Source of the DNA: Gammaproteobacteria bacterium
GTDB taxonomy: Bacteria; Pseudomonadota; Gammaproteobacteria; JAKDMP01
Direction of reading: 5' to 3'
Length of the DNA: 64,000 bases
NCBI GenBank assembly: GCA_027018875.1
Contig: JALUYA010000001.1
Span: 13,457-77,456 of the forward strand
Shown: piece after piece, positions 3 to 33,804 of the stretch
Position numbering within the stretch: position 1 is the stretch's first letter
Layout of the letters: each line of letters opens with the position of its first letter
Notes under the pieces: generated by a model
Told to the model about the DNA's origin: nothing
The model's input: the letters and a program-made list of their open reading frames with translations, nothing else
Database searches by the model: none
Program-made: the position numbers and the translations under genes

Positions 3-335
3 CCGGGGGAACAAGCGGGCTATCCCACCATATGCAAGGGAAGGTTCCGGGTTGGAGAGCATGTCTATTATGCGATGGAAGAGCCTACCAGCCTGAATAC
101 GTTGGATATTCTTCCCGAGCTGATGCGGGCGGGGGTCGCGGCCATAAAGGTGGAAGGGCGGCAGCGCAGCCCCGCCTATGTTGCGCAAGTAACCGCGGTC
201 ATGCGGGCCGCCATAGATGCTTGCCTTGCGGATCCTCAGGCTTATAAACCGCACGCGGCCTGGCAACAGGCGTTGGCGTCGGTTTCCGAAGGGACGCAGA
301 CAACCCTGGGCGCCTATCACCGGCCCTGGCTCTAG
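3..335 (+). CDS. ubiU: U32-family peptidase-like protein, 3' end (5'-truncated by window); likely UbiU, the partner of the downstream UbiV
   Basis: Frame 3 is open from the window start. C-terminal motifs EEPTSLN...LPEL...GV.AIKVEGR.RSP.YV are typical of U32 peptidases. Sits immediately upstream of a UbiV-like gene, as in yhbU-yhbV. The specific UbiU assignment rests on synteny only. Confidence 0.5.
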   Translation, partial: PGEQAGYPTICKGRFRVGEHVYYAMEEPTSLNTLDILPELMRAGVAAIKVEGRQRSPAYVAQVTAVMRAAIDACLADPQAYKPHAAWQQALASVSEGTQTTLGAYHRPWL

Positions 336-586: not shown

Positions 587-1492
587 ATGCAGCTTGCCTT
601 AGGACCACTGCTCTATTGCTGGCCACGAGAGCAGGTACTGTCTTTTTACGAGCAGGCAGCTGGATGGCCGGTGGAGATCGTTTATCTTGGGGAGGTCGTG
701 TGCTCGAAACGTCGGGTACTTTCTCTTGATGAGTGGCTCGACTTGGCTAAACACCTGGAATCGGCGGGGAAGCAAGTTGTCCTCTCCACCCTGACCCTGC
801 TGGAAGCCGGATCGGAACTGGGCGCCTTACGCCGCTTATGCCGTAACGGCCACTTTGATGTCGAAGCCAATGACATGGCCGCGGTCAATATACTTGCTGC
901 GGCCGGAGTTGAATTTATTGGTGGGCCCACATTGAATATCTATAATCCGCGAACGCTTGCGGTTTTGGTCGGGCAGGGGCTGCGCCGCTGGGTTTTACCG
1001 TTTGAGTTGTCGCATCCGGCGGCAAGCGAGTTAATCAATGCGGCTCCGGCTTCCTGCACCTGCGAAGTCTTTGCCTGGGGGCGGTTGCCATTGTCCTGGT
1101 CGGCGCGATGCTACACGGCAAGAGCCGAAAACCGTGCTAAGGATCAGTGTGAGATAATTTGCCGTAATGACCCGGATGGACGCCTGGTATCTACCCGCGA
1201 AGGACAACCTTTTTTGACGATTAACGGGGTACAGATGCAGTCTGCCCTAACCCAGGACCTGGCCCCCTGGATTCCAGAGATGGAAGCGGCCGGAATCCAG
1301 GTATTGCGCTTGAGTCCTCAGTATTCCGGTATGGATGAGGTGGTGGAATGCTTTGATCGACTGCGGCGCGATCCGGGCGATCAGGAGGTATTACGGCGCT
1401 TGCAGTCATTGGCTGCGGTAGGTGTCTGTGACGGCTACTGGCATGGTGAGGCCGGCTTTGCCAACACCGCGAACGGTTTGCAGCAGTCGTGA
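587..1492 (+). CDS. ubiV: U32-family [4Fe-4S] protein UbiV (O2-independent ubiquinone hydroxylation accessory protein)
   Basis: N-terminal [13 protein letters not shown] matches the UbiV/YhbV N-terminus. Cys pattern C-X12-C-X3-C ([18 protein letters not shown]) plus an upstream Cys matches the UbiV Fe-S ligands. Start moved to the internal ATG at 587; the listed ORF starts at 461. Confidence 0.75.
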
Positions 1493-1557
1493 ATTTTCTG
1501 CAACTGGGCGAAGGGCCAGTGTCGCGGTGGTTGGAACGTCGTGGCCGGTCGCGGTGG

Positions 1558-3015
1558 TTGGATCTCAGGGTGTTTCTGGAGGACCTGGAACAGCACGGAG
1601 AGTTACGCCGGGTTGGTGAGGCGGTGGATTCCCACTTGGAAATCACCGCCATTTGCCGCCAAAGCCTACTGCGCCAGGGACCGGCCCTGTTATTTGAGCG
1701 GGTGAAAGGCCGGGATATGCCGGTTTTGGGCAATCTATTCGGCGACACCAGGCGGATCGGCAGGGCACTGGGGTTGGAATCTTTGGAGGAGTTGCGCGAG
1801 GTTGGACGGCTGCTCAGTTTCTTCAAGTCTCCCCACTTGCCAAGCAACTTTTGGGATGGATTACAGGATGCGCCGCAATGGATGCGCCTGGCTCATTTGC
1901 GTCCTCGGCTGCTCAGTGAGGCAGCCTGTCAACAGAATGTGTGGGTTGGATCCGAGGTGGACTTGGAGAGACTACCGATCCAGACTTGCTGGCCGCAAGA
2001 CGTGGGGCCGTTGTTGAGCTTTGGATTGGTGGTGACACGGGGCACGCGCCAGCCGCGGCTTAACGTGGCAATTTATCGCCAGCAGTTAATCGGTAGGAAT
2101 AAGCTCATCATGCGGTGGCTTTCGCATCGCGGTGGCGCCCAGGACTACCGTGACTGGCTGCAGGAGCACCCGGATCGACCCTTTCCGGTGGCCGTCGTCC
2201 TGGGGGCCGACCCGTCAACCATTTTGGCCGCCGTGGCTCCCGTGCCCGATACCTTGTCCGAATATCAGTTTGCTGGGTTGCTACGGGGGGCGCGAACGGA
2301 GCTGACCCGGTGTACAAGCCACGATTTACTGGTTCCGACGAAGGCCGAGATCGTTCTGGAAGGGCATATTTATCCCGGGGAAACGGCCCTTGAGGGTCCC
2401 TTTTGCGATCACACCGGATATTACAATGCGGTCGCGGAGTTTCCCGTGTTCACCGTGGAGCGGATCTGCACCCGGGAAAATCCTTTCTATCACACCAGCT
2501 ATATGGGCCGGCCACCCGAGGATGAACCCTCCGTTTTGGCCCGTGCGCTCAATGAAATATTTATCCCGTTGTTACAAACCCAGTTTCCGGAAATCGTCGA
2601 TTTCTACCTGCCTCCGGCCGCCTGCTCCTACCGCGTTGCATTGGTGAGTATTCGCAAGCAATACTCGGGCCACGCGCGGCGCATTATGATGGGAATTTGG
2701 TCCTGGTTACGTCAATTTACCTATACCAAGTACATTATTGTCGTGGATGAAGATATCGACGTGCGCGATACCGGCCAGGTGCTATGGGCGATCTCCACCC
2801 GGTCCGATCCGGGTCGCGACTCCCTGGTTATAGACCGCACCCCGATAGACTACCTGGATTTTGCCAGCCCGGAAAGCGGCTTGGGTGGGAAATTGGGGCT
2901 TGATGCAACCCGGAAATGGCCCGGAGAGAGCAACCGGGAGTGGGGAAGGGTGGCGGTGATGAGCCCCGAAATCGAAGCCCGTGCACAAGCATTGTGTGAA
3001 CGATTGGGTATTTAA
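1558..3015 (+). CDS. ubiD: UbiD-family decarboxylase (3-octaprenyl-4-hydroxybenzoate carboxy-lyase)
   Basis: [35 protein letters not shown] and the ~490-aa length are typical of UbiD. Start is ambiguous: GTG at 1489 overlapping the ubiV stop, or TTG at 1558. The 1558 start was chosen from alignment to the E. coli N-terminus. Confidence 0.8.
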
Positions 3016-11049: not shown

Positions 11050-12336
11050 ATGCGCCGCGCCTGGGGAATTGAGATTGCCTGGGCACTCCTGTTTGTCGGC
11101 ATTGGAGCGGGTATCGGTATCGCTGTCGGAAACCTAGCGTGGGGGATCGCCGGTGGCTTGGCCGCAGTGCTGGGGTGGCGCTTATGGATGCTCGGGTTAT
11201 TGCTCTGGCGATTGAGGCGAGGTACCGAACTTTATTTCGCTGGTGGTGGATTGGTCAGGGAAGTTGGGGATTATTGCCGCCGTTGCCATCGCGCCGATGC
11301 GGCTCTTCGGGGCGATCTAGGACGGTTGCGGCGCGAATTGGTGACCTTTGCCCGGGCCATGCCCGATGCCGCGTTGGTACTCGATCGGCATGGGACGATT
11401 CAGTGGGCTAATGCGGTCGGTCGGCGATGGTTCGGGCTGAGGCCGGAAGATACGGGCCGGCCGTTGATGCAGCTGGTACGCGATCCGATTTTGATTGACC
11501 GACTTGCCGCTAGCGATAAATCTGGCTCAATAGAGATGCCCTCACCGTCGGCTCCCGATACCGAATTGATGGTTCAGATAACGTCCTACGGAGACGATGG
11601 ACGTACACTGATTCTTGCACGCGATATGACTCGCTTGAAGCGGCTCGAGCGGGTGCGGCACGACTTTGTCGCGAATGTTTCGCATGAACTAAAAAGTCCG
11701 CTTACCGTGGTTTCCGGTTATGTGGAACTTCTAGCCGACGATCCCGAAATTCCTGCCACCTGGATCGAACCCGTTGCGGCGCTCAATCGGGAGGTCCGAC
11801 GCATGGGAGCGATCGTTAATGACTTGTTGACATTAGCCCGTCTCGAATCCGGGCTTCAGCTCCCCGAGCGGATTCCCGTGGCGATACCACAACTGTTGCG
11901 GCGGGTGCGCGCCCAGACCTATTCGGCAGCCATTGCACAGCGGTATATGGAATTGGATATACAGACCGAAGCGCGGGTGCTGGGGGATGAGGCCGAGTTG
12001 GAAAGTGCAGTAAGGAACCTGCTTTCTAATGCGTTGAAGTATACCTCCGATACGGGGCATATCCGGATTACTTGGCGGGTTGTCGGAGCGAATGCACAGT
12101 TGTATGTGGAAGACGATGGAATCGGAATCCCCGCGCGGGATATTCCCCGGCTGACCGAACGGTTTTACCGGGTTGACAAGGGTCGTTCCGCGCGCAGTGG
12201 GGGGACGGGCCTGGGGCTGGCTATCGTCAAGCACGTGGCCGAACGTCATGGTGCGCGGTTATGCATCGAAAGCGAGCTCGGCCAAGGAAGCCGGTTTACA
12301 CTGGTTTTCCCTCGTAGCCGCATTCTTTGGGAGTGA
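11050..12336 (+). CDS. phoR: phosphate regulon sensor histidine kinase PhoR
   Basis: N-terminal transmembrane segment, PAS region, HisKA box DFVANVSHELKSPLT, ATPase G-boxes DDGIGIP and GGTGLGLAIVKH. Adjacent to and overlapping phoB. Confidence 0.85.
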   Translation: MRRAWGIEIAWALLFVGIGAGIGIAVGNLAWGIAGGLAAVLGWRLWMLGLLLWRLRRGTELYFAGGGLVREVGDYCRRCHRADAALRGDLGRLRRELVTFARAMPDAALVLDRHGTIQWANAVGRRWFGLRPEDTGRPLMQLVRDPILIDRLAASDKSGSIEMPSPSAPDTELMVQITSYGDDGRTLILARDMTRLKRLERVRHDFVANVSHELKSPLTVVSGYVELLADDPEIPATWIEPVAALNREVRRMGAIVNDLLTLARLESGLQLPERIPVAIPQLLRRVRAQTYSAAIAQRYMELDIQTEARVLGDEAELESAVRNLLSNALKYTSDTGHIRITWRVVGANAQLYVEDDGIGIPARDIPRLTERFYRVDKGRSARSGGTGLGLAIVKHVAERHGARLCIESELGQGSRFTLVFPRSRILWE

Positions 12337-12705
12337 TATGAAGCGTTTAAATGGATCTGAGTTCTTTGCAGGAGGTTGTCGGGTTTAGAGCCTGTAACCC
12401 GATTCGAGTTGCTATTGCCGGAGGTTCTTATTGCGGGAGTATAACGGCTGCTTATCCTGGTGAACTTAATGGATTTGGAAGGGTGAAGGTGACTTACAGG
12501 CGGGAGAATACCCGTATTTTTTGACCTTTATGCTGGAGAGTAGAATGATCGACGAAACAGGATATCCCCATTATTACTCAAATTCCTGCTCCTCCGATTT
12601 CTTGGTATTGATAATCGGTAATCCCCAATCCCCTTAGTTCGAGAAAGGAGATCATAGGTCTCTGAATTCGGCAGTCTGTGTCGATATCGCTACAATAAAA
12701 GAAAT

Positions 12706-13290
12706 TTGTGCGTGAGTGCTTTCGTGTCATTCAGTCCTGAGAATCTGATTTGGATTGATCTTGAGATGACCGGCCTCGATTCCCGGTCTGATCGAATTCT
12801 CGAGATCGCAACGGTAGTAACCGACAAGCAATTGCGTCCCGTGGCCACGGGGCCGGTGCTTGCTATTCATCAGCCGGATCCCGTGCTGGCCGCAATGGAT
12901 CGCTGGAATGTGGAGCATCATTCCGCCTCGGGGCTGATCGAGCGGGTACGCTCCAGCTCAATTGACGCCGCGGAAGCCGAACACCGTACGCTCCAATTCT
13001 TGCGCCAACACGTTCCCGAGCGGGCCTCTCCCATGTGTGGTAATTCTATTTGCCAGGATCGGCGCTTTCTAGCTCGGTTCATGCCTACTTTAGAGGCGTT
13101 TTTTCACTATCGGCAGGTAGATGTCAGTACTTTTAAGGAACTTGCCAAGCGGTGGGCGCCCCAAATTGTGGCAGGATTCGGTAAGAAGAGCACGCATGAA
13201 GCCCTAGCCGATATCGAGGAATCCATCGCCGAACTGGCGTATTATCGCCGACAATTATTTTTGCCCGAATATGCCGGTGGAAAGGACTAG
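12706..13290 (+). CDS. orn: oligoribonuclease Orn
   Basis: [13 protein letters not shown]...[11 protein letters not shown]...[12 protein letters not shown]...[21 protein letters not shown]...[18 protein letters not shown] aligns with E. coli Orn along its length. Confidence 0.9.
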
Positions 13291-13293
13291 AAG

Positions 13294-13400
13294 CTTGTCG
13301 AGCTTAGGTCACCGTAGCGAGTAGGCTAAGGAAGTGAGTCAAAATGTTTCTGGTTCTGAGGAGCTTGGCGGCTGTGGGACGGTATTTTTGGCTGCTATCC
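13294..13400. repeat. Intergenic repeat, copy A: 56-nt conserved core, variable linker, 17-nt second box
   Basis: The core at 13297-13352 is about 89% identical to 15940-15995. The second box TATTTTTGGCTGCTATCC matches 16039-16055. Non-coding; no ORF is conserved between the two copies. Confidence 0.7.
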
Positions 13401-13528
13401 CACCAGCGTGGCGAATTATGCCCAGGCCTGACAGAATCCCAGAAGGCGGGCTGGTCCGGGTTTTGTTATTAGAGTGGATGGAAACTAATGGAGACCTGGA
13501 GGTGGATTCGTTTAGATAGGCCCCGGGA

Positions 13529-13990
13529 CTAGGCCCGCCAAGTGTCCGTGTGGCCTGATGAGTTCCGTAGCTTATGTTGTACCGCTTCCGGAGATGGCCC
13601 TTGGCGGGGCCGATCCCGACGGCGGGAGCAAGGGTCGGGGTTGGCGGCGGTGCCAATATGGACGGGAAGCTTGCCTTGAGCCCAGGCCAGTGTCCCATCC
13701 CCAACGATTATCGCCCGGGGAAAAGAGGCTACGATGCGTCTCCAGGCTTCATACGAGCGATATCCGGTGCGGCAGACAAGGTAGATTTGGACCCCCGGGG
13801 GGCACTGCCGCGCTTGTAGGCATTCCTCCAGGGCGGCGGAATCGAACTGACCAAGCGGCAGCGAGATGGCTCCCTTGATATGTATGAGCCAATACTCACC
13901 GGGTTCGCGCACATCGATGATCACGGCAGATTCCCCAGCGGAAATACGGCGATGCAGTTCGCGGGCAGAAATCGAGGGCGGACGTTTCAA
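13529..13990 (-). CDS. rhodanese-domain sulfurtransferase, single domain, with C-terminal extension
   Basis: VIIDVREPGEY...GHIKGAISLPL and active-site loop CRTGYRS. TTG start. About 45 extra Arg/Pro-rich residues follow the domain. Confidence 0.7.
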   Translation of the reverse strand: MKRPPSISARELHRRISAGESAVIIDVREPGEYWLIHIKGAISLPLGQFDSAALEECLQARQCPPGVQIYLVCRTGYRSYEAWRRIVASFPRAIIVGDGTLAWAQGKLPVHIGTAANPDPCSRRRDRPRQGPSPEAVQHKLRNSSGHTDTWRA

Positions 13991-14012
13991 CGGTAATTAC
14001 AGGAGTAAAACG

Positions 14013-15038
14013 ATGGATGACACGATAGCAGAATGTCGAGCGGTTTGTCCGGGTGATTGGGTGCGGCCGCCGGCCGCGGCGGAGATCGCTGCGGCACGTA
14101 CCCGCTTGGCTGCCCGGGTAGCACATACGCCGGTGTTGCGCCCGGCGGCATTGAAACGGGTCTATGGCGAAGATGTGTGGTTGAAATGCGAGCAATTTCA
14201 ACCGGTCGGTGCGTTTAAGGTGCGTGGGGCCGCCAACGCGGTACGCTCGCTTTCCGAGGCTGAGTTAAAGCGGGGGGTTGCAACTCACTCATCCGGCAAT
14301 CATGGTGCCGCCCTGGCCTGGGCGGCACGGGAAGCCGGCGCCAGGTGCCAGGTGGTAATGCCCCGGAGTGCTGTAGCATCGAAACGCGCTGCTGTGAAAT
14401 ATTTCGGTGGCGAGGTGATCGATTGTGGTCCGAGTCAGGAGGATCGGGAGGCCCGGTTGGCCGAGGTCCTCGCTGCCACCGGTGCCGTAATGATCCATCC
14501 CTATGATGATGCCCGAGTTATTGCAGGCCAGGCGAGTGCAACGATCGAGTTGTTGGAAGCCCTACCCGAGCTGGGTACCCTGGTTGTTCCGGTTGGTGGC
14601 GGAGGCTTGTGTGCGGGAGCCATCCTTGCGGCCCGATGGCTGTCCCGTTCACTGGCCATTATCGGGGTGGAGCCGGCGGGCGCCGATGATACCCGACGTT
14701 CGCTCGATGCTGGATGCCGAGTGGCTCTGGATCGGGTCGAGACCTGTGCCGACGGATTGCGTGCCCAAGTGGGTGAGGTGACCTTCCCGGTGCTGGAATC
14801 TGGACTTGCCGATCTGGTCACGGTTGACGAGGCGGCCATTCTTGCGGCGACCCGCTGGGCGGTGGAAGTGGCGAAAATGGTGATTGAACCTTCGGCGGCG
14901 ACCGTACTGGCGGCTTTGTTTCAAGGTGGGATCCCTCGGGGAAAGGGCGCTACTGCGGCGATTATCTCGGGAGGTAATCTGGACTTCGACGGAGCGGTCT
15001 GGCGTCGGGCTAGACTTGCAACTATGCCTGGAGGGTGA
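14013..15038 (+). CDS. PLP-dependent threonine/serine dehydratase family enzyme (fold type II; no ACT domain)
   Basis: PLP-Lys motif FQPVGAFKVRGA, SSGNHG, Gly-rich loop VVPVGGGGL. AGGAG Shine-Dalgarno 8 nt before the ATG at 14013; the listed ORF begins upstream at 13866. Confidence 0.8.
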   Translation: MDDTIAECRAVCPGDWVRPPAAAEIAAARTRLAARVAHTPVLRPAALKRVYGEDVWLKCEQFQPVGAFKVRGAANAVRSLSEAELKRGVATHSSGNHGAALAWAAREAGARCQVVMPRSAVASKRAAVKYFGGEVIDCGPSQEDREARLAEVLAATGAVMIHPYDDARVIAGQASATIELLEALPELGTLVVPVGGGGLCAGAILAARWLSRSLAIIGVEPAGADDTRRSLDAGCRVALDRVETCADGLRAQVGEVTFPVLESGLADLVTVDEAAILAATRWAVEVAKMVIEPSAATVLAALFQGGIPRGKGATAAIISGGNLDFDGAVWRRARLATMPGG

Positions 15039-15074
15039 CAGAATTAACACCCTCCTGTTACGGAATATCCAGCC

Positions 15075-15626
15075 ATGCGAGTTCAAAGTGTTCTTCTGAT
15101 GGGTGTGCTGATGGGTTCCCTTCCGGTTTTCGCCGCCCAACCGGCCCCGATTACTTCTGCCCAGCCTGCCGCTATGGTCACCGGGGTTTGGGTGACGCCC
15201 AACAACAAATCCCATGTACGGATCTACCGGGGCGCGGATGGTAAGTTTTATGGCAAGATCATCTGGCTCAAGCAGCCGGATTATCCTGCAAATTACAAAG
15301 TCAAGTCGCTTGCCGGCAAGCCGAAGATCGATCGACATAACCCCGATAAGCGTCTGCGTGACCGGGCGGTTCTAGGGCTCAACATCCTGACGGGCTTCCA
15401 ATATCTTCCGAAACAGCATGCCTGGGGTAAGGGTAAATGCTATGATCCGACCAAAGGCAAGACCTACAACTGCCGGATGTGGTTCACCGGTAATGGTAAG
15501 GACCTCAAGTTGCGTGGCTATATCTGGATCTTCTATAGGACCGAGACCTGGGTAAGATACCAGGCGCCCAAGAACCAAGCCACCCCTACTGCACCAATCC
15601 CGCAGACGGCAGCCACGATCCGCTAA
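15075..15626 (+). CDS. secreted DUF2147-family protein
   Basis: Signal peptide MRVQSVLLMGVLMGSLPVFAA. GVWVTPNNKSHVRIYRGADGKFYGKIIWL matches the DUF2147 signature. Confidence 0.6.
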   Translation: MRVQSVLLMGVLMGSLPVFAAQPAPITSAQPAAMVTGVWVTPNNKSHVRIYRGADGKFYGKIIWLKQPDYPANYKVKSLAGKPKIDRHNPDKRLRDRAVLGLNILTGFQYLPKQHAWGKGKCYDPTKGKTYNCRMWFTGNGKDLKLRGYIWIFYRTETWVRYQAPKNQATPTAPIPQTAATIR

Positions 15627-15937
15627 GCGGAATTATCTGCTGTGAATTTACTCGGGTAGGTTGTGCCGGTACGGGTTGTATTTTTATGCCGCTGGGTTTT
15701 ACCGGGATTGCGGTTTGCACTTCATCGACCGCATCATGAAATCTCGTCTGGGGTTCTCCTTCGGGCCTTCGAGAAATGCCTCATAACGGATTTCCTGCCG
15801 GGGTTGTACGCGACTGGTCGGTATCGGGTGTGATCCGGTAATCGCCTGCTTTATCGGCTCTAGCCAGGTGCCTCCCGGATTTTCCGGGATGGCACATGCC
15901 CCAGAGTAGATGATGTCCTATGTCGAACGGTCGGAGC

Positions 15938-16055
15938 CTGTCGAGCTTAGGCCATCGTAGCGAGTAGGCTAAGGAGGGGAGTCAAAACATTTCTGATTTT
16001 GCGGCGCATAGTGGGTCTATGTAATGAGGAATTAAAGATATTTTGGCTGCTGTCC
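15938..16055. repeat. Intergenic repeat, copy B (same family and orientation as 13294-13400)
   Basis: Core TGTCGAGCTTAGGCCATCGTAGCGAGTAGGCTAAGGAGGGGAGTCAAAACATTTCTG and second box TATTTTGGCTGCTGTCC. Confidence 0.7.
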
Positions 16056-16076
16056 TGCTACCGCAGCAGATTGTCT

Positions 16077-16841
16077 CTAAGTCCGACAGACCTCTAAAGG
16101 TCCCCATGCCTGGGCGGTGGGCATGAGTTCAATCAGGTTGATGTTGACGTGGGGCGGTTGTTCAATGGCCCATATGACGGTGTGAGCAATGTCGGCCGGA
16201 TGCAGTGGTTCGAGTCCACGGTAAACATTTGCCGCCTGTTTCCGGTCTCCCTTGAAGCGAATAATCGAAAATTCGGTTTCCGCCAGTCCCGGTGCGATTT
16301 CGGTTACGCGTACTCCGGTTCCGAGCAAATCGGCACGCAGATTGCGTGTAAATTGGCGTACAAAGGCTTTGGTTGCACCATAAACATTGCTGCCGAGATA
16401 GGGGTTATCCGCTGCGACCGAACCCAGGTTGATAATATGGCCGCGTCCGGATTCGACCATGCTGGGTAACAAGGCGTGGGTGAGGTAAGTCAGCCCCCGG
16501 ATATTGGTATCGATCATGATCTCCCAGTCATCCAACGAGGCGCGCTGGGATGGTTCAAGCCCGAGAGCAAGCCCGGCGTTGTTGACCAGTACCTCAATTG
16601 GCAAAAATTCCTCGGGTATTGTAGCCAGGGCCTGATTTACGGCGGTGCGCGTGCGAATATCGAAAGGCAACGGATACAGGTTTCCATCTGTGGATTCGGC
16701 CAGATCCCGCAGACGCTCGATCCGGCGCCCGGCGATTACGACCCGCCAGCCGTTTGCGGCCAGGATTCGGGCAATGGCCGCGCCGAACCCGGCACTGGCG
16801 CCGGTGACTAATGCCGTTCGGTTATTCGGAGTTTGAAGCAT
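16077..16841 (-). CDS. SDR-family NAD(P)-dependent oxidoreductase (YdfG-like 3-hydroxy acid dehydrogenase)
   Basis: TGASAGFGAAIA cofactor motif, NNAG, catalytic Y-x3-K (YGATKAF). Confidence 0.8.
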   Translation of the reverse strand: MLQTPNNRTALVTGASAGFGAAIARILAANGWRVVIAGRRIERLRDLAESTDGNLYPLPFDIRTRTAVNQALATIPEEFLPIEVLVNNAGLALGLEPSQRASLDDWEIMIDTNIRGLTYLTHALLPSMVESGRGHIINLGSVAADNPYLGSNVYGATKAFVRQFTRNLRADLLGTGVRVTEIAPGLAETEFSIIRFKGDRKQAANVYRGLEPLHPADIAHTVIWAIEQPPHVNINLIELMPTAQAWGPLEVCRT

Positions 16842-33719: not shown

Positions 33720-33804
33720 GCGGATGTGGTGGAATAGGTAGACACGCTGTCTTGAGGGGGCAGTGGCGCAAGCCGTGCCGGTTCGACTCCGGCCATCCGC
33801 ACCA
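33720..33804 (+). tRNA. tRNA-Leu (anticodon GAG), long variable arm
   Basis: GCGGATG acceptor stem pairing with CATCCGC. Anticodon stem CUGUC/GGCAG with loop UUGAGGG. Long variable arm, T-loop GGTTCGACTCC, encoded CCA. Confidence 0.85.

Follow-up and report, generated by a model that had tools for sequence, protein, structure and literature searches.

Introduction

Several families of short repeats described in other bacteria are the closest points of comparison for the element reported here. RUP of Streptococcus pneumoniae is proposed to be acted on in trans by an IS630-family transposase (PMC2229807), and YPAL/RU-2 of Yersinia is proposed to affect the stability of the upstream mRNA (PMC2229807, PMC2759123). 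Most of the repeat families of Pseudomonas fluorescens Pf0-1 show a gene context bias, toward tail-to-tail neighbors (PMC2718517). IS630-type elements duplicate TA and prefer CTAG, as described in PMC2170065 and in its reference Tenzen and Ohtsubo (1991). We studied a 64,000-nt stretch of a gammaproteobacterial genome (assembly GCA_027018875.1, contig JALUYA010000001.1, positions 13,457 to 77,456; hereafter the window), in which a first-pass annotation had noted two copies of a bipartite intergenic repeat bracketing a three-gene islet. We put the probability at about 0.85 that both repeats, and a third that we found, are old copies, altered by mutation, of a non-autonomous transposable element of ~168 bp, that is, a MITE (miniature inverted-repeat transposable element). 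The observation was confirmed, with the limits of the repeat drawn wrongly; of the readings offered for it, the MITE-like one was right and the islet one wrong.

Three copies of a dispersed element

A repeat search of the window paired 13292–13371 with 15935–16014, at 83% identity over 80 nt. A 37-nt pattern for the repeat core matched at 13296–13332 and 15939–15975 only, and no match of any kind occurred in 100 shuffles. A local alignment of 13292–13400 with 15935–16055 also spanned a second box, TATTTT(T)GGCTGCTRTCC. These results bear out the claims that the repeat lies at its two positions on the same strand, that a 56-nt core is ~89% identical between the copies (we count 6 mismatches) and that a second conserved box follows each core. 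The core has stops in all six frames when the sequence is read; the element had been called noncoding. The neighboring genes had also been named correctly: orn (RNase_T), a rhodanese gene, a pyridoxal phosphate-dependent dehydratase of the PALP family, DUF2147, a short-chain dehydrogenase/reductase (SDR) and HrcA.

The family was reached through a sister species (loci L003/L004, 89% identity), which has a diverged copy after orn. From this copy and the two window copies we derived a degenerate 29-nt search pattern, GCYTGTCGRRCTTAGNNNNNNGTAGCGAG, which matched GTDB species genomes at least 121 times, over 120 loci or more. A hidden Markov model (HMM) and a covariance model of the family match exactly three places in the window, copies A, B and C, with limits that we set by eye (Table 1); all three are full-length against the family model. 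With nhmmer, copy A matches at 13286–13442 (HMM positions 2–170, E=5.6e-16), copy B at 15931–16096 (positions 4–169, E=6.3e-29) and copy C with E=6.2e-10. The covariance model gives 13285–13444 for A (43.7 bits, E=4e-9), 15928–16099 for B (104.9 bits) and 330–503 for C (55.6 bits). The repeat of ~110 nt therefore exists, but each copy is longer than that, and the "unrelated linker" thought to separate its two boxes is the diverged apex, the hairpin tip, of a single hairpin element. Likewise, the two copies were both found again, but a third lies 13 kb away on the opposite strand.

The window copies are fossils. Their mean identity to other family members is only 47–57%, against 88–99% among copies within actively colonized genomes. 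Decay is seen in all three, and B alone still folds well, forming a single long hairpin (RNA fold of −62.4 kcal/mol, z=−3.49, none of 200 shuffles as good). Folding of copy A is no better than that of its shuffles (z=−0.33), and folding of copy C is barely above them (z=−1.4). The partial coordinates first proposed for the repeat gave unremarkable z-scores; structure appears only when the full element is folded.

Table 1. Features of the three element copies and their surroundings in the window
Feature	Position	Strand	Remarks
Copy A, degenerate	13287–13442	+	156 nt, ~11 nt missing near apex; between convergent orn and rhodanese genes
5' flanking CTAG of copy A	13287–13290	+	TAG at 13288–13290 is the orn stop; orn open reading frame (ORF) ends at 13290
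Core of copy A, its 5' arm	13297–13352	+	Terminal inverted repeat, conserved CGTAGCGAG motif and inner-stem 5' strand (family alignment)
Box 2 of copy A	13384–13401	+	Inner-stem 3' strand; TTTTGGCT pairs with AGTCAAAA of the core (consensus structure)
Copy B, best preserved in the window	15930–16097	+	168 nt; between convergent DUF2147 and SDR genes
3' terminal inverted repeat of copy B	16077–16097	−	Codes for the last SDR residues, (L)EVCRT, and for the TAG stop
Probable relic of displaced native SDR 3' coding end	15910–15929	−	CCGTTCGAC, compared by eye with GCCGTCGAT in relative L005
Noncoding stretch	15627–15929		Relatives have a 900-aa M16 peptidase gene here; eroded beyond recognition in the window
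Copy C, degenerate	332–500	−	169 nt; between two Peptidase_U32-family genes, upstream of ubiD

Anatomy and hairpin of intact copies

Intact copies are imperfect palindromes that start with CTAG-GA-GCCTGTCGGACTTAGG and finish with the inverted complement, CCTAAGTCCGACAGGC-TC-CTAG. One intact example reads CTAGGAGCCTGTCGGACTTAGG-nnnn-CGTAGCGAGG...TTTGAGGCGAATAG-(loop)-CTATTTAACGAAAA...CCGCAGTAGA-nnnn-CCTAAGTCCGACAGGCTCCTAG. Both ends were present in 91 of the 121 matches listed; in ~80 of these the inner ends lie 154–158 nt apart, and the total length is ~168 nt with the CTAG-GA and TC-CTAG ends included. G+C content is ~53%. None of the six frames of the consensus is free of stops, and the median length of a copy's longest open stretch is 49 aa.

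The interior is self-complementary, and either strand can fold as one long hairpin; for an intact copy the fold reaches −104 kcal/mol (z=−15). We tested a structure of 70 base pairs against an alignment of 78 copies: 89.7% of the cells hold standard pairs, compared with 76% after shuffling and 36–47% when the partners are slid. Terminal pairs are kept in 73–77 of the 78 sequences, with GGA..TCC covarying with GCA..TGC (49 versus 24 copies), and changes on both sides were found in 45 of the 70 pairs. Two asymmetric internal loops, CGTAGCGAG / GCAGTAGA and GAGGCGAATAG / TTAACGA, are conserved. In 71 of 74 copies the better fold is that of the top strand. G-U pairs outnumber A-C mismatches 271 to 99 in raw counts, or 28 to 22 by column; the excess comes from a few conserved columns and we do not rely on it.

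Terminal inverted repeats, small size with no coding capacity, and many dispersed copies in unrelated contexts are all as in a MITE. Another mark of such elements, a cognate autonomous insertion sequence (IS) with the same ends, was not found within the ~120 loci sampled.

Rfam gave no match to the window elements at the gathering threshold, nor at E≤10 over 13000–16400, and no match on the elements of intact copies at five loci with E up to 1. The matches that fell off the elements were at chance level or unrelated (PVT1_6; TwoAYGGAY, SorY and Leu_leader elsewhere in two loci). Locus L036, from a Pseudomonas metagenome-assembled genome (MAG), has two near-threshold TwoAYGGAY matches, at 1253–1316 and 1496–1560 (39.4 and 35.2 bits; gathering score 43), unrelated to the element. 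A tRNA-Leu(GAG) gene at 33720–33804 is the only Rfam or ARAGORN match in the window. A scan for sigma-70 promoters and terminators found nothing associated with the window elements, and readings of the core as a sigma-54, sigma-E or sigma-32 promoter were dropped for misfit of the spacing, judged by eye.

Hosts and copy number

The hosts among the matches listed are mostly Gammaproteobacteria: Thioalkalivibrio, Marinobacterium, Pseudomaricurvus, Endozoicomonas, Pseudomonas, Granulosicoccus, Woeseia, Steroidobacteraceae, Thiodiazotropha and many MAGs. Also listed are some Betaproteobacteria including Janthinobacterium, then Geobacter and Oryzomonas, and one Haliangium MAG with a truncated copy. 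Several genomes have at least five copies each among these matches. The complete genomes richest in the element include those of Pseudomaricurvus alcaniphilus MEBiC06469, Thioalkalivibrio sulfidiphilus, T. denitrificans and Endozoicomonas elysicola DSM 22380. Copies within one genome are 88–99% identical, compared with a mean of 70% across genomes, which points to recent bursts. About 15 of the matches listed end at a contig edge, as is usual for a repeat that disrupts assembly. The 93-kb sister scaffold L003 (ENA XULI22-1 scaffold_4) stops within the rhodanese gene, some hundreds of bases away from the element cluster, which fits with repeats having broken the assembly there.

A collection of plasmids yielded one weak, unannotated match (Pseudomonas sp. 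MPC6), and viral contigs had no match to the element. The exact 19-mer of the window subtype, CGTAGCGAGTAGGCTAAGG, was absent from collections of genome and metagenome contigs, which says little, as the sample of L002 (JGI sample 3300022695), a locus that carries the 19-mer, is evidently missing from the metagenome collection.

Size variants were also noted. Longer forms (~277 nt, or with 20–30 extra nt) have their extra sequence at the apex; these are L025 (3346–3625) and L074 from Marinobacterium and L027 and L112 from Granulosicoccus. Internally deleted minis that retain both ends occur at L010, L024, L026 and L095. Three loci of a single MAG, SuakinDeep_MAG79_4 (L032, L045 and L048), have flanks identical for tens of bases on both sides; here the element is embedded in a larger repeat.

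The element occurs in numerous marine, soda-lake and soil proteobacteria, where it breaks assemblies and can mislead the annotation of gene ends and supposed noncoding RNAs. Repeat and annotation libraries would gain from including a family profile.

Probable insertion at CTAG

The borders of the element are sharp; outside the CTAG, sequence is random. Of 78 complete copies, 54 are flanked by CTAG at both ends. Deviations at the inner G and C number only 1 of 156 cases, compared with 45 of 468 at the outer six positions (Fisher p=2.7e-5). Exceptions of the forms TTAG...CTAG and CTAG...CTAT occur, and these fit duplication of TA at a target other than CTAG, not a 4-bp duplication. The flank statistics as a whole are consistent with TA duplication within CTAG.

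Movement is probably by cut-and-paste, with an IS630-type transposase. Because no autonomous element was seen in the loci sampled, we infer both the mobilizing enzyme and the mechanism from the ends and flanks. A transposase encoded elsewhere would bind the terminal inverted repeats and excise the element, which would then re-insert at the TA of a CTAG target, with duplication of the TA as by IS630/Tc1-mariner elements. With G as its first letter and C as its last, the element would restore CTAG on both sides.

Such a target would have a consequence for genes. CTAG has TAG on both strands, and an insertion into a TAG stop codon would leave the stop intact. This is probably why copies accumulate exactly at gene ends, often between convergent genes. 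At ~27 element ends in other genomes the stop of the neighboring gene lies inside the flanking CTAG, and in several cases the element separates two convergent genes whose stops both fall within CTAG.

Altered gene ends in the window

Copy B supplies the end of the SDR gene. The SDR protein ends in PLEVCRT in the window and PLGVCRT in the sister species, compared with PLAVDRSGD and PMAVHRDAAATP in element-free relatives (each followed directly by the stop), and the family consensus, read in the SDR frame, gives LGACRT and a stop; the conclusion follows from the match of the SDR tail to this element-encoded sequence. Beyond the other end of B, 15910–15929 is probably the displaced native SDR end. 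The resemblance of CCGTTCGAC to GCCGTCGAT there is short and degenerate, making for a weak comparison of filled and empty sites.

In copy C, the CTAG at 332–335 provides the upstream U32 gene (ORF 75..335; Pfam) with its TAG stop. The U32-family genes around this copy are possibly UbiU/UbiV-like; the UbiD gene is at 1489–3015. Copy A would have landed on the orn stop codon and copy C on the stop of the U32-family gene, while copy B would have entered the SDR gene at a CTAG lying a few codons short of its end and replaced the SDR tail.

These fossil insertions reshaped gene ends: the SDR gene has a new tail, the orn stop lies inside a flanking CTAG, and the rhodanese is ~37 residues longer. The rhodanese ORF (13529–13990, minus strand) is longer by that amount at its C terminus than in element-free relatives. 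In the sister species the extension is shorter, ~17 residues, and runs into a second, reverse-oriented element fragment (L004 326–398). For L001, an ENA contig identical to the window, the gene caller missed the rhodanese and called a 72-aa ORF on the opposite strand (window 13601–13819).

Gene neighborhood in relatives

Relatives were taken as loci around homologs of the PALP enzyme, the nearest named homologs being in MAGs labeled Gammaproteobacteria. L005 and L006 (~70% aa identity) have orn, rhodanese (opposite strand), PALP, DUF2147, a 900-aa M16 peptidase, SDR (opposite strand) and hrcA. L007 and L008 (~67% aa identity) have the same backbone with extra genes and without DUF2147. In both groups orn and rhodanese are spaced by 15–22 nt, with no repeat. 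The first-pass annotation had suggested checking whether relatives have orn directly beside SDR-hrcA; instead they retain the intervening genes. Since relatives lack the elements and yet share the gene order, the three bracketed genes are ancestral neighbors, not cargo, and the novelty in the window lineage is the DNA of the two convergent gaps.

One of these gaps holds the trace of a loss. Where relatives carry the M16 gene, a search with the L005 M16 protein (tblastn; L005 gene at 11696–14398) found only a remnant in the sister species (L004 2300–2950, E=9e-8) and nothing significant in the window. On these grounds the "intergenic" 15627–15929 is the scar of a lost gene.

The close divergent pair of rhodanese and dehydratase genes was correctly described: the start codons (TTG ending at 13990, ATG at 14013 by ORF coordinates) leave a gap of 22 bp, 13991–14012. 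Relatives have 16–30 nt there, so the tight arrangement is conserved. A consensus promoter scan of the gap found nothing.

Age of the insertions

In the sister species, too, the orn stop and the SDR 3' end each carry an element; L005–L008 have neither. Given this pattern, both insertions date from before the split from the sister species and after the split from L005–L008.

Similarity between the copies does not simply follow the sites. Window A and window B are 84% identical in the 5' arm, 69% at the apex and 61% in the 3' arm. Window A and the sister copy at the same site (L004 A) are 65%, 42% and 42% identical in these parts. For window A and the sister copy at the B site (L004 B) the 5' arm is not alignable, and identities are 67% at the apex and 55% in the 3' arm. 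By sequence, window A looks like a B-type copy. The high similarity of the A and B 5' arms (84–89%) is best explained either by later gene conversion, the copies being 2.6 kb apart, or by a replacement insertion at the same CTAG; we infer one or the other from these comparisons.

Alternative explanations

Several points weigh against the MITE reading or limit the numbers behind it. A plain MITE model does not call for the compensatory changes seen throughout the interior; these hint at selection on the hairpin itself. In ~120 loci of up to 8 kb we saw no autonomous element, with a transposase between the same ends, and no matching pair of ends 0.7–2.5 kb apart, this being a small sample; the search yielded no more than copies that were truncated or had internal deletions, plus ends facing outward at the edges of contigs. 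TA duplication rests on the flank statistics and one degenerate site, the SDR 3' end, rather than on a recent pair of filled and empty sites; the comparison at that site is compatible with TA duplication. Gene-context counts rest on crude ORF calls, and the search pattern selects copies with a conserved 5' arm, so that family statistics are biased to well-preserved members.

Two other readings concern the window alone. That A and B share an orientation and bracket three genes had suggested direct-repeat ends, like attL and attR scars, of a 2.6-kb insertion that brought in the rhodanese, PLP enzyme and DUF2147 genes. An integrated island of this kind should leave an empty site in relatives, and we found the reverse: relatives at ~70% and ~67% keep orn-rhodanese-PALP(-DUF2147) and SDR-hrcA in order, and it is the repeats that are absent. 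Each copy is moreover a complete element with two inverted ends of its own, and copy C lies far from the pair and in the other orientation, so we give this reading next to no credence. Mere local duplication of one intergenic segment in this genome would account for A and B being closer to each other than either is to any other copy, and for the exact 19-mer being found nowhere else in the genome and metagenome collections. It is nonetheless very improbable, since both copies align end to end with a profile from other genomes (E=6e-29 and 6e-16; 104.9 and 43.7 bits), each has its own inverted ends and recognizable, if degenerate, CTAG-derived flanks, and the sister species is occupied at the same two sites. 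A false lead is removed for the window: it holds no three-gene islet, and a small-RNA gene is unsupported. Against the suggested small-RNA or terminator module stand the lack of an Rfam match, sequences that are unconserved in the sister species, the folding of copy A and an orientation relative to neighboring genes that shows no significant bias.

The remaining readings concern the family. It could be primarily a structured module of RNA or single-stranded DNA (ssDNA), with the hairpin as its selected function and mobility only its means of spread; examples would be a mobile stabilizer of 3' ends or a barrier that separates convergent genes, of the kind reported for YPAL. This would make sense of the compensatory changes across subfamilies, the conserved asymmetric loops, the better-folding top strand, the raw excess of G-U over A-C and a commonest context just past stops and between convergent genes. 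Yet orientation is without significant bias (14 co-directional tandem cases, >E>, and 6 opposite, <E<), the G-U excess is weak by column, no U-tract follows the hairpin, no Rfam family matches, and the window copies and their sister counterparts decay freely; matched changes in the arms could also reflect co-evolution of both ends with one transposase, or repair within the hairpin. On balance we think such a module unlikely. The REP/REPIN class of short (~20–40 nt), GTAG-headed repetitive extragenic palindromes in inverted doublets, moved by a RAYT (Y1/HUH) transposase, or a palindromic derivative of IS200/IS605 type, is suggested by the GTAG in both arms (CGTAGCGAG and GCAGTAGA), the palindrome and the extragenic location. 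In a REP doublet, however, the two GTAGs would be mirror-symmetric, and here they share one strand; the length of ~168 nt is not that of two units of ~25–35 nt, and symmetrical CTAG flanks misfit a one-sided insertion without duplication; an origin of this sort is highly unlikely.

The preferred reading, a MITE, leaves room for a tentative extension, on which we would not wager much: the family may be a horizontally spreading, self-docking gene-end module, which inserts in TAG stops and rebuilds the stop on either strand, with a putative function. If so, compensatory changes would have maintained a hairpin of ~80 bp in different orders and even phyla, for a role of the RNA or ssDNA such as 3'-end stabilizer, barrier to convergent transcripts or structure for its own mobilization. 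With its docking at TAG stops and its hairpin preserved by paired changes, the family offers a good test case for whether the hairpins of bacterial MITEs are selected or merely inherited.

Comparison with known elements

A search of ~8 million papers with sequence words of the family returned only unrelated ones, and with no Rfam model either, the family appears to be undescribed so far (R6, discussed below, was compared by description only). Two candidates, unlike the family in ends and duplications, were ruled out: Chunjie, which has 9-bp direct repeats and is AT-rich, and MITEPsy1/2, which has different ends.

Four described groups come closer. By description, RUP is like the family in being short and noncoding, with terminal inverted repeats and insertion at TA. 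It differs in its 107-bp length, its Firmicutes host and its ends, which match those of a known IS (IS630-Spn1), whereas no matching IS was found for our family in the loci sampled. The Correia (NEMIS) and ERIC elements are also MITE-like, with inverted ends and TA termini, and form hairpins when co-transcribed with their neighbors (PMC2229807). Again compared by description only, they are unlike the family in hosts (Neisseria and enterobacteria) and size (~104–157 bp and 127 bp). R6 of P. fluorescens Pf0-1 has 177 bp, 34-bp inverted repeats, a hairpin and 50 copies (PMC2718517), and Pseudomonas is also among the hosts in our list of matches. Its G+C content is 59%, against ~53% here; this comparison too is by description, and R6 stands as a lead, not a confirmed relative.

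YPAL/RU-2 resembles the family in size (~167–168 bp), in its long stable hairpin and in not being AT-rich. It also inserts just downstream of genes and can extend or replace gene ends (PMC2229807, PMC2759123). The family HMM had no match on the published RU-2 sequence (nhmmer --max, E up to 100), by which YPAL too was ruled out. YPAL has no TA termini and makes variable duplications of 3–26 bp (PMC2229807), unlike the uniform CTAG flanks of our family. The element is most probably of a known kind, the bacterial MITE, and the family itself appears to be new.

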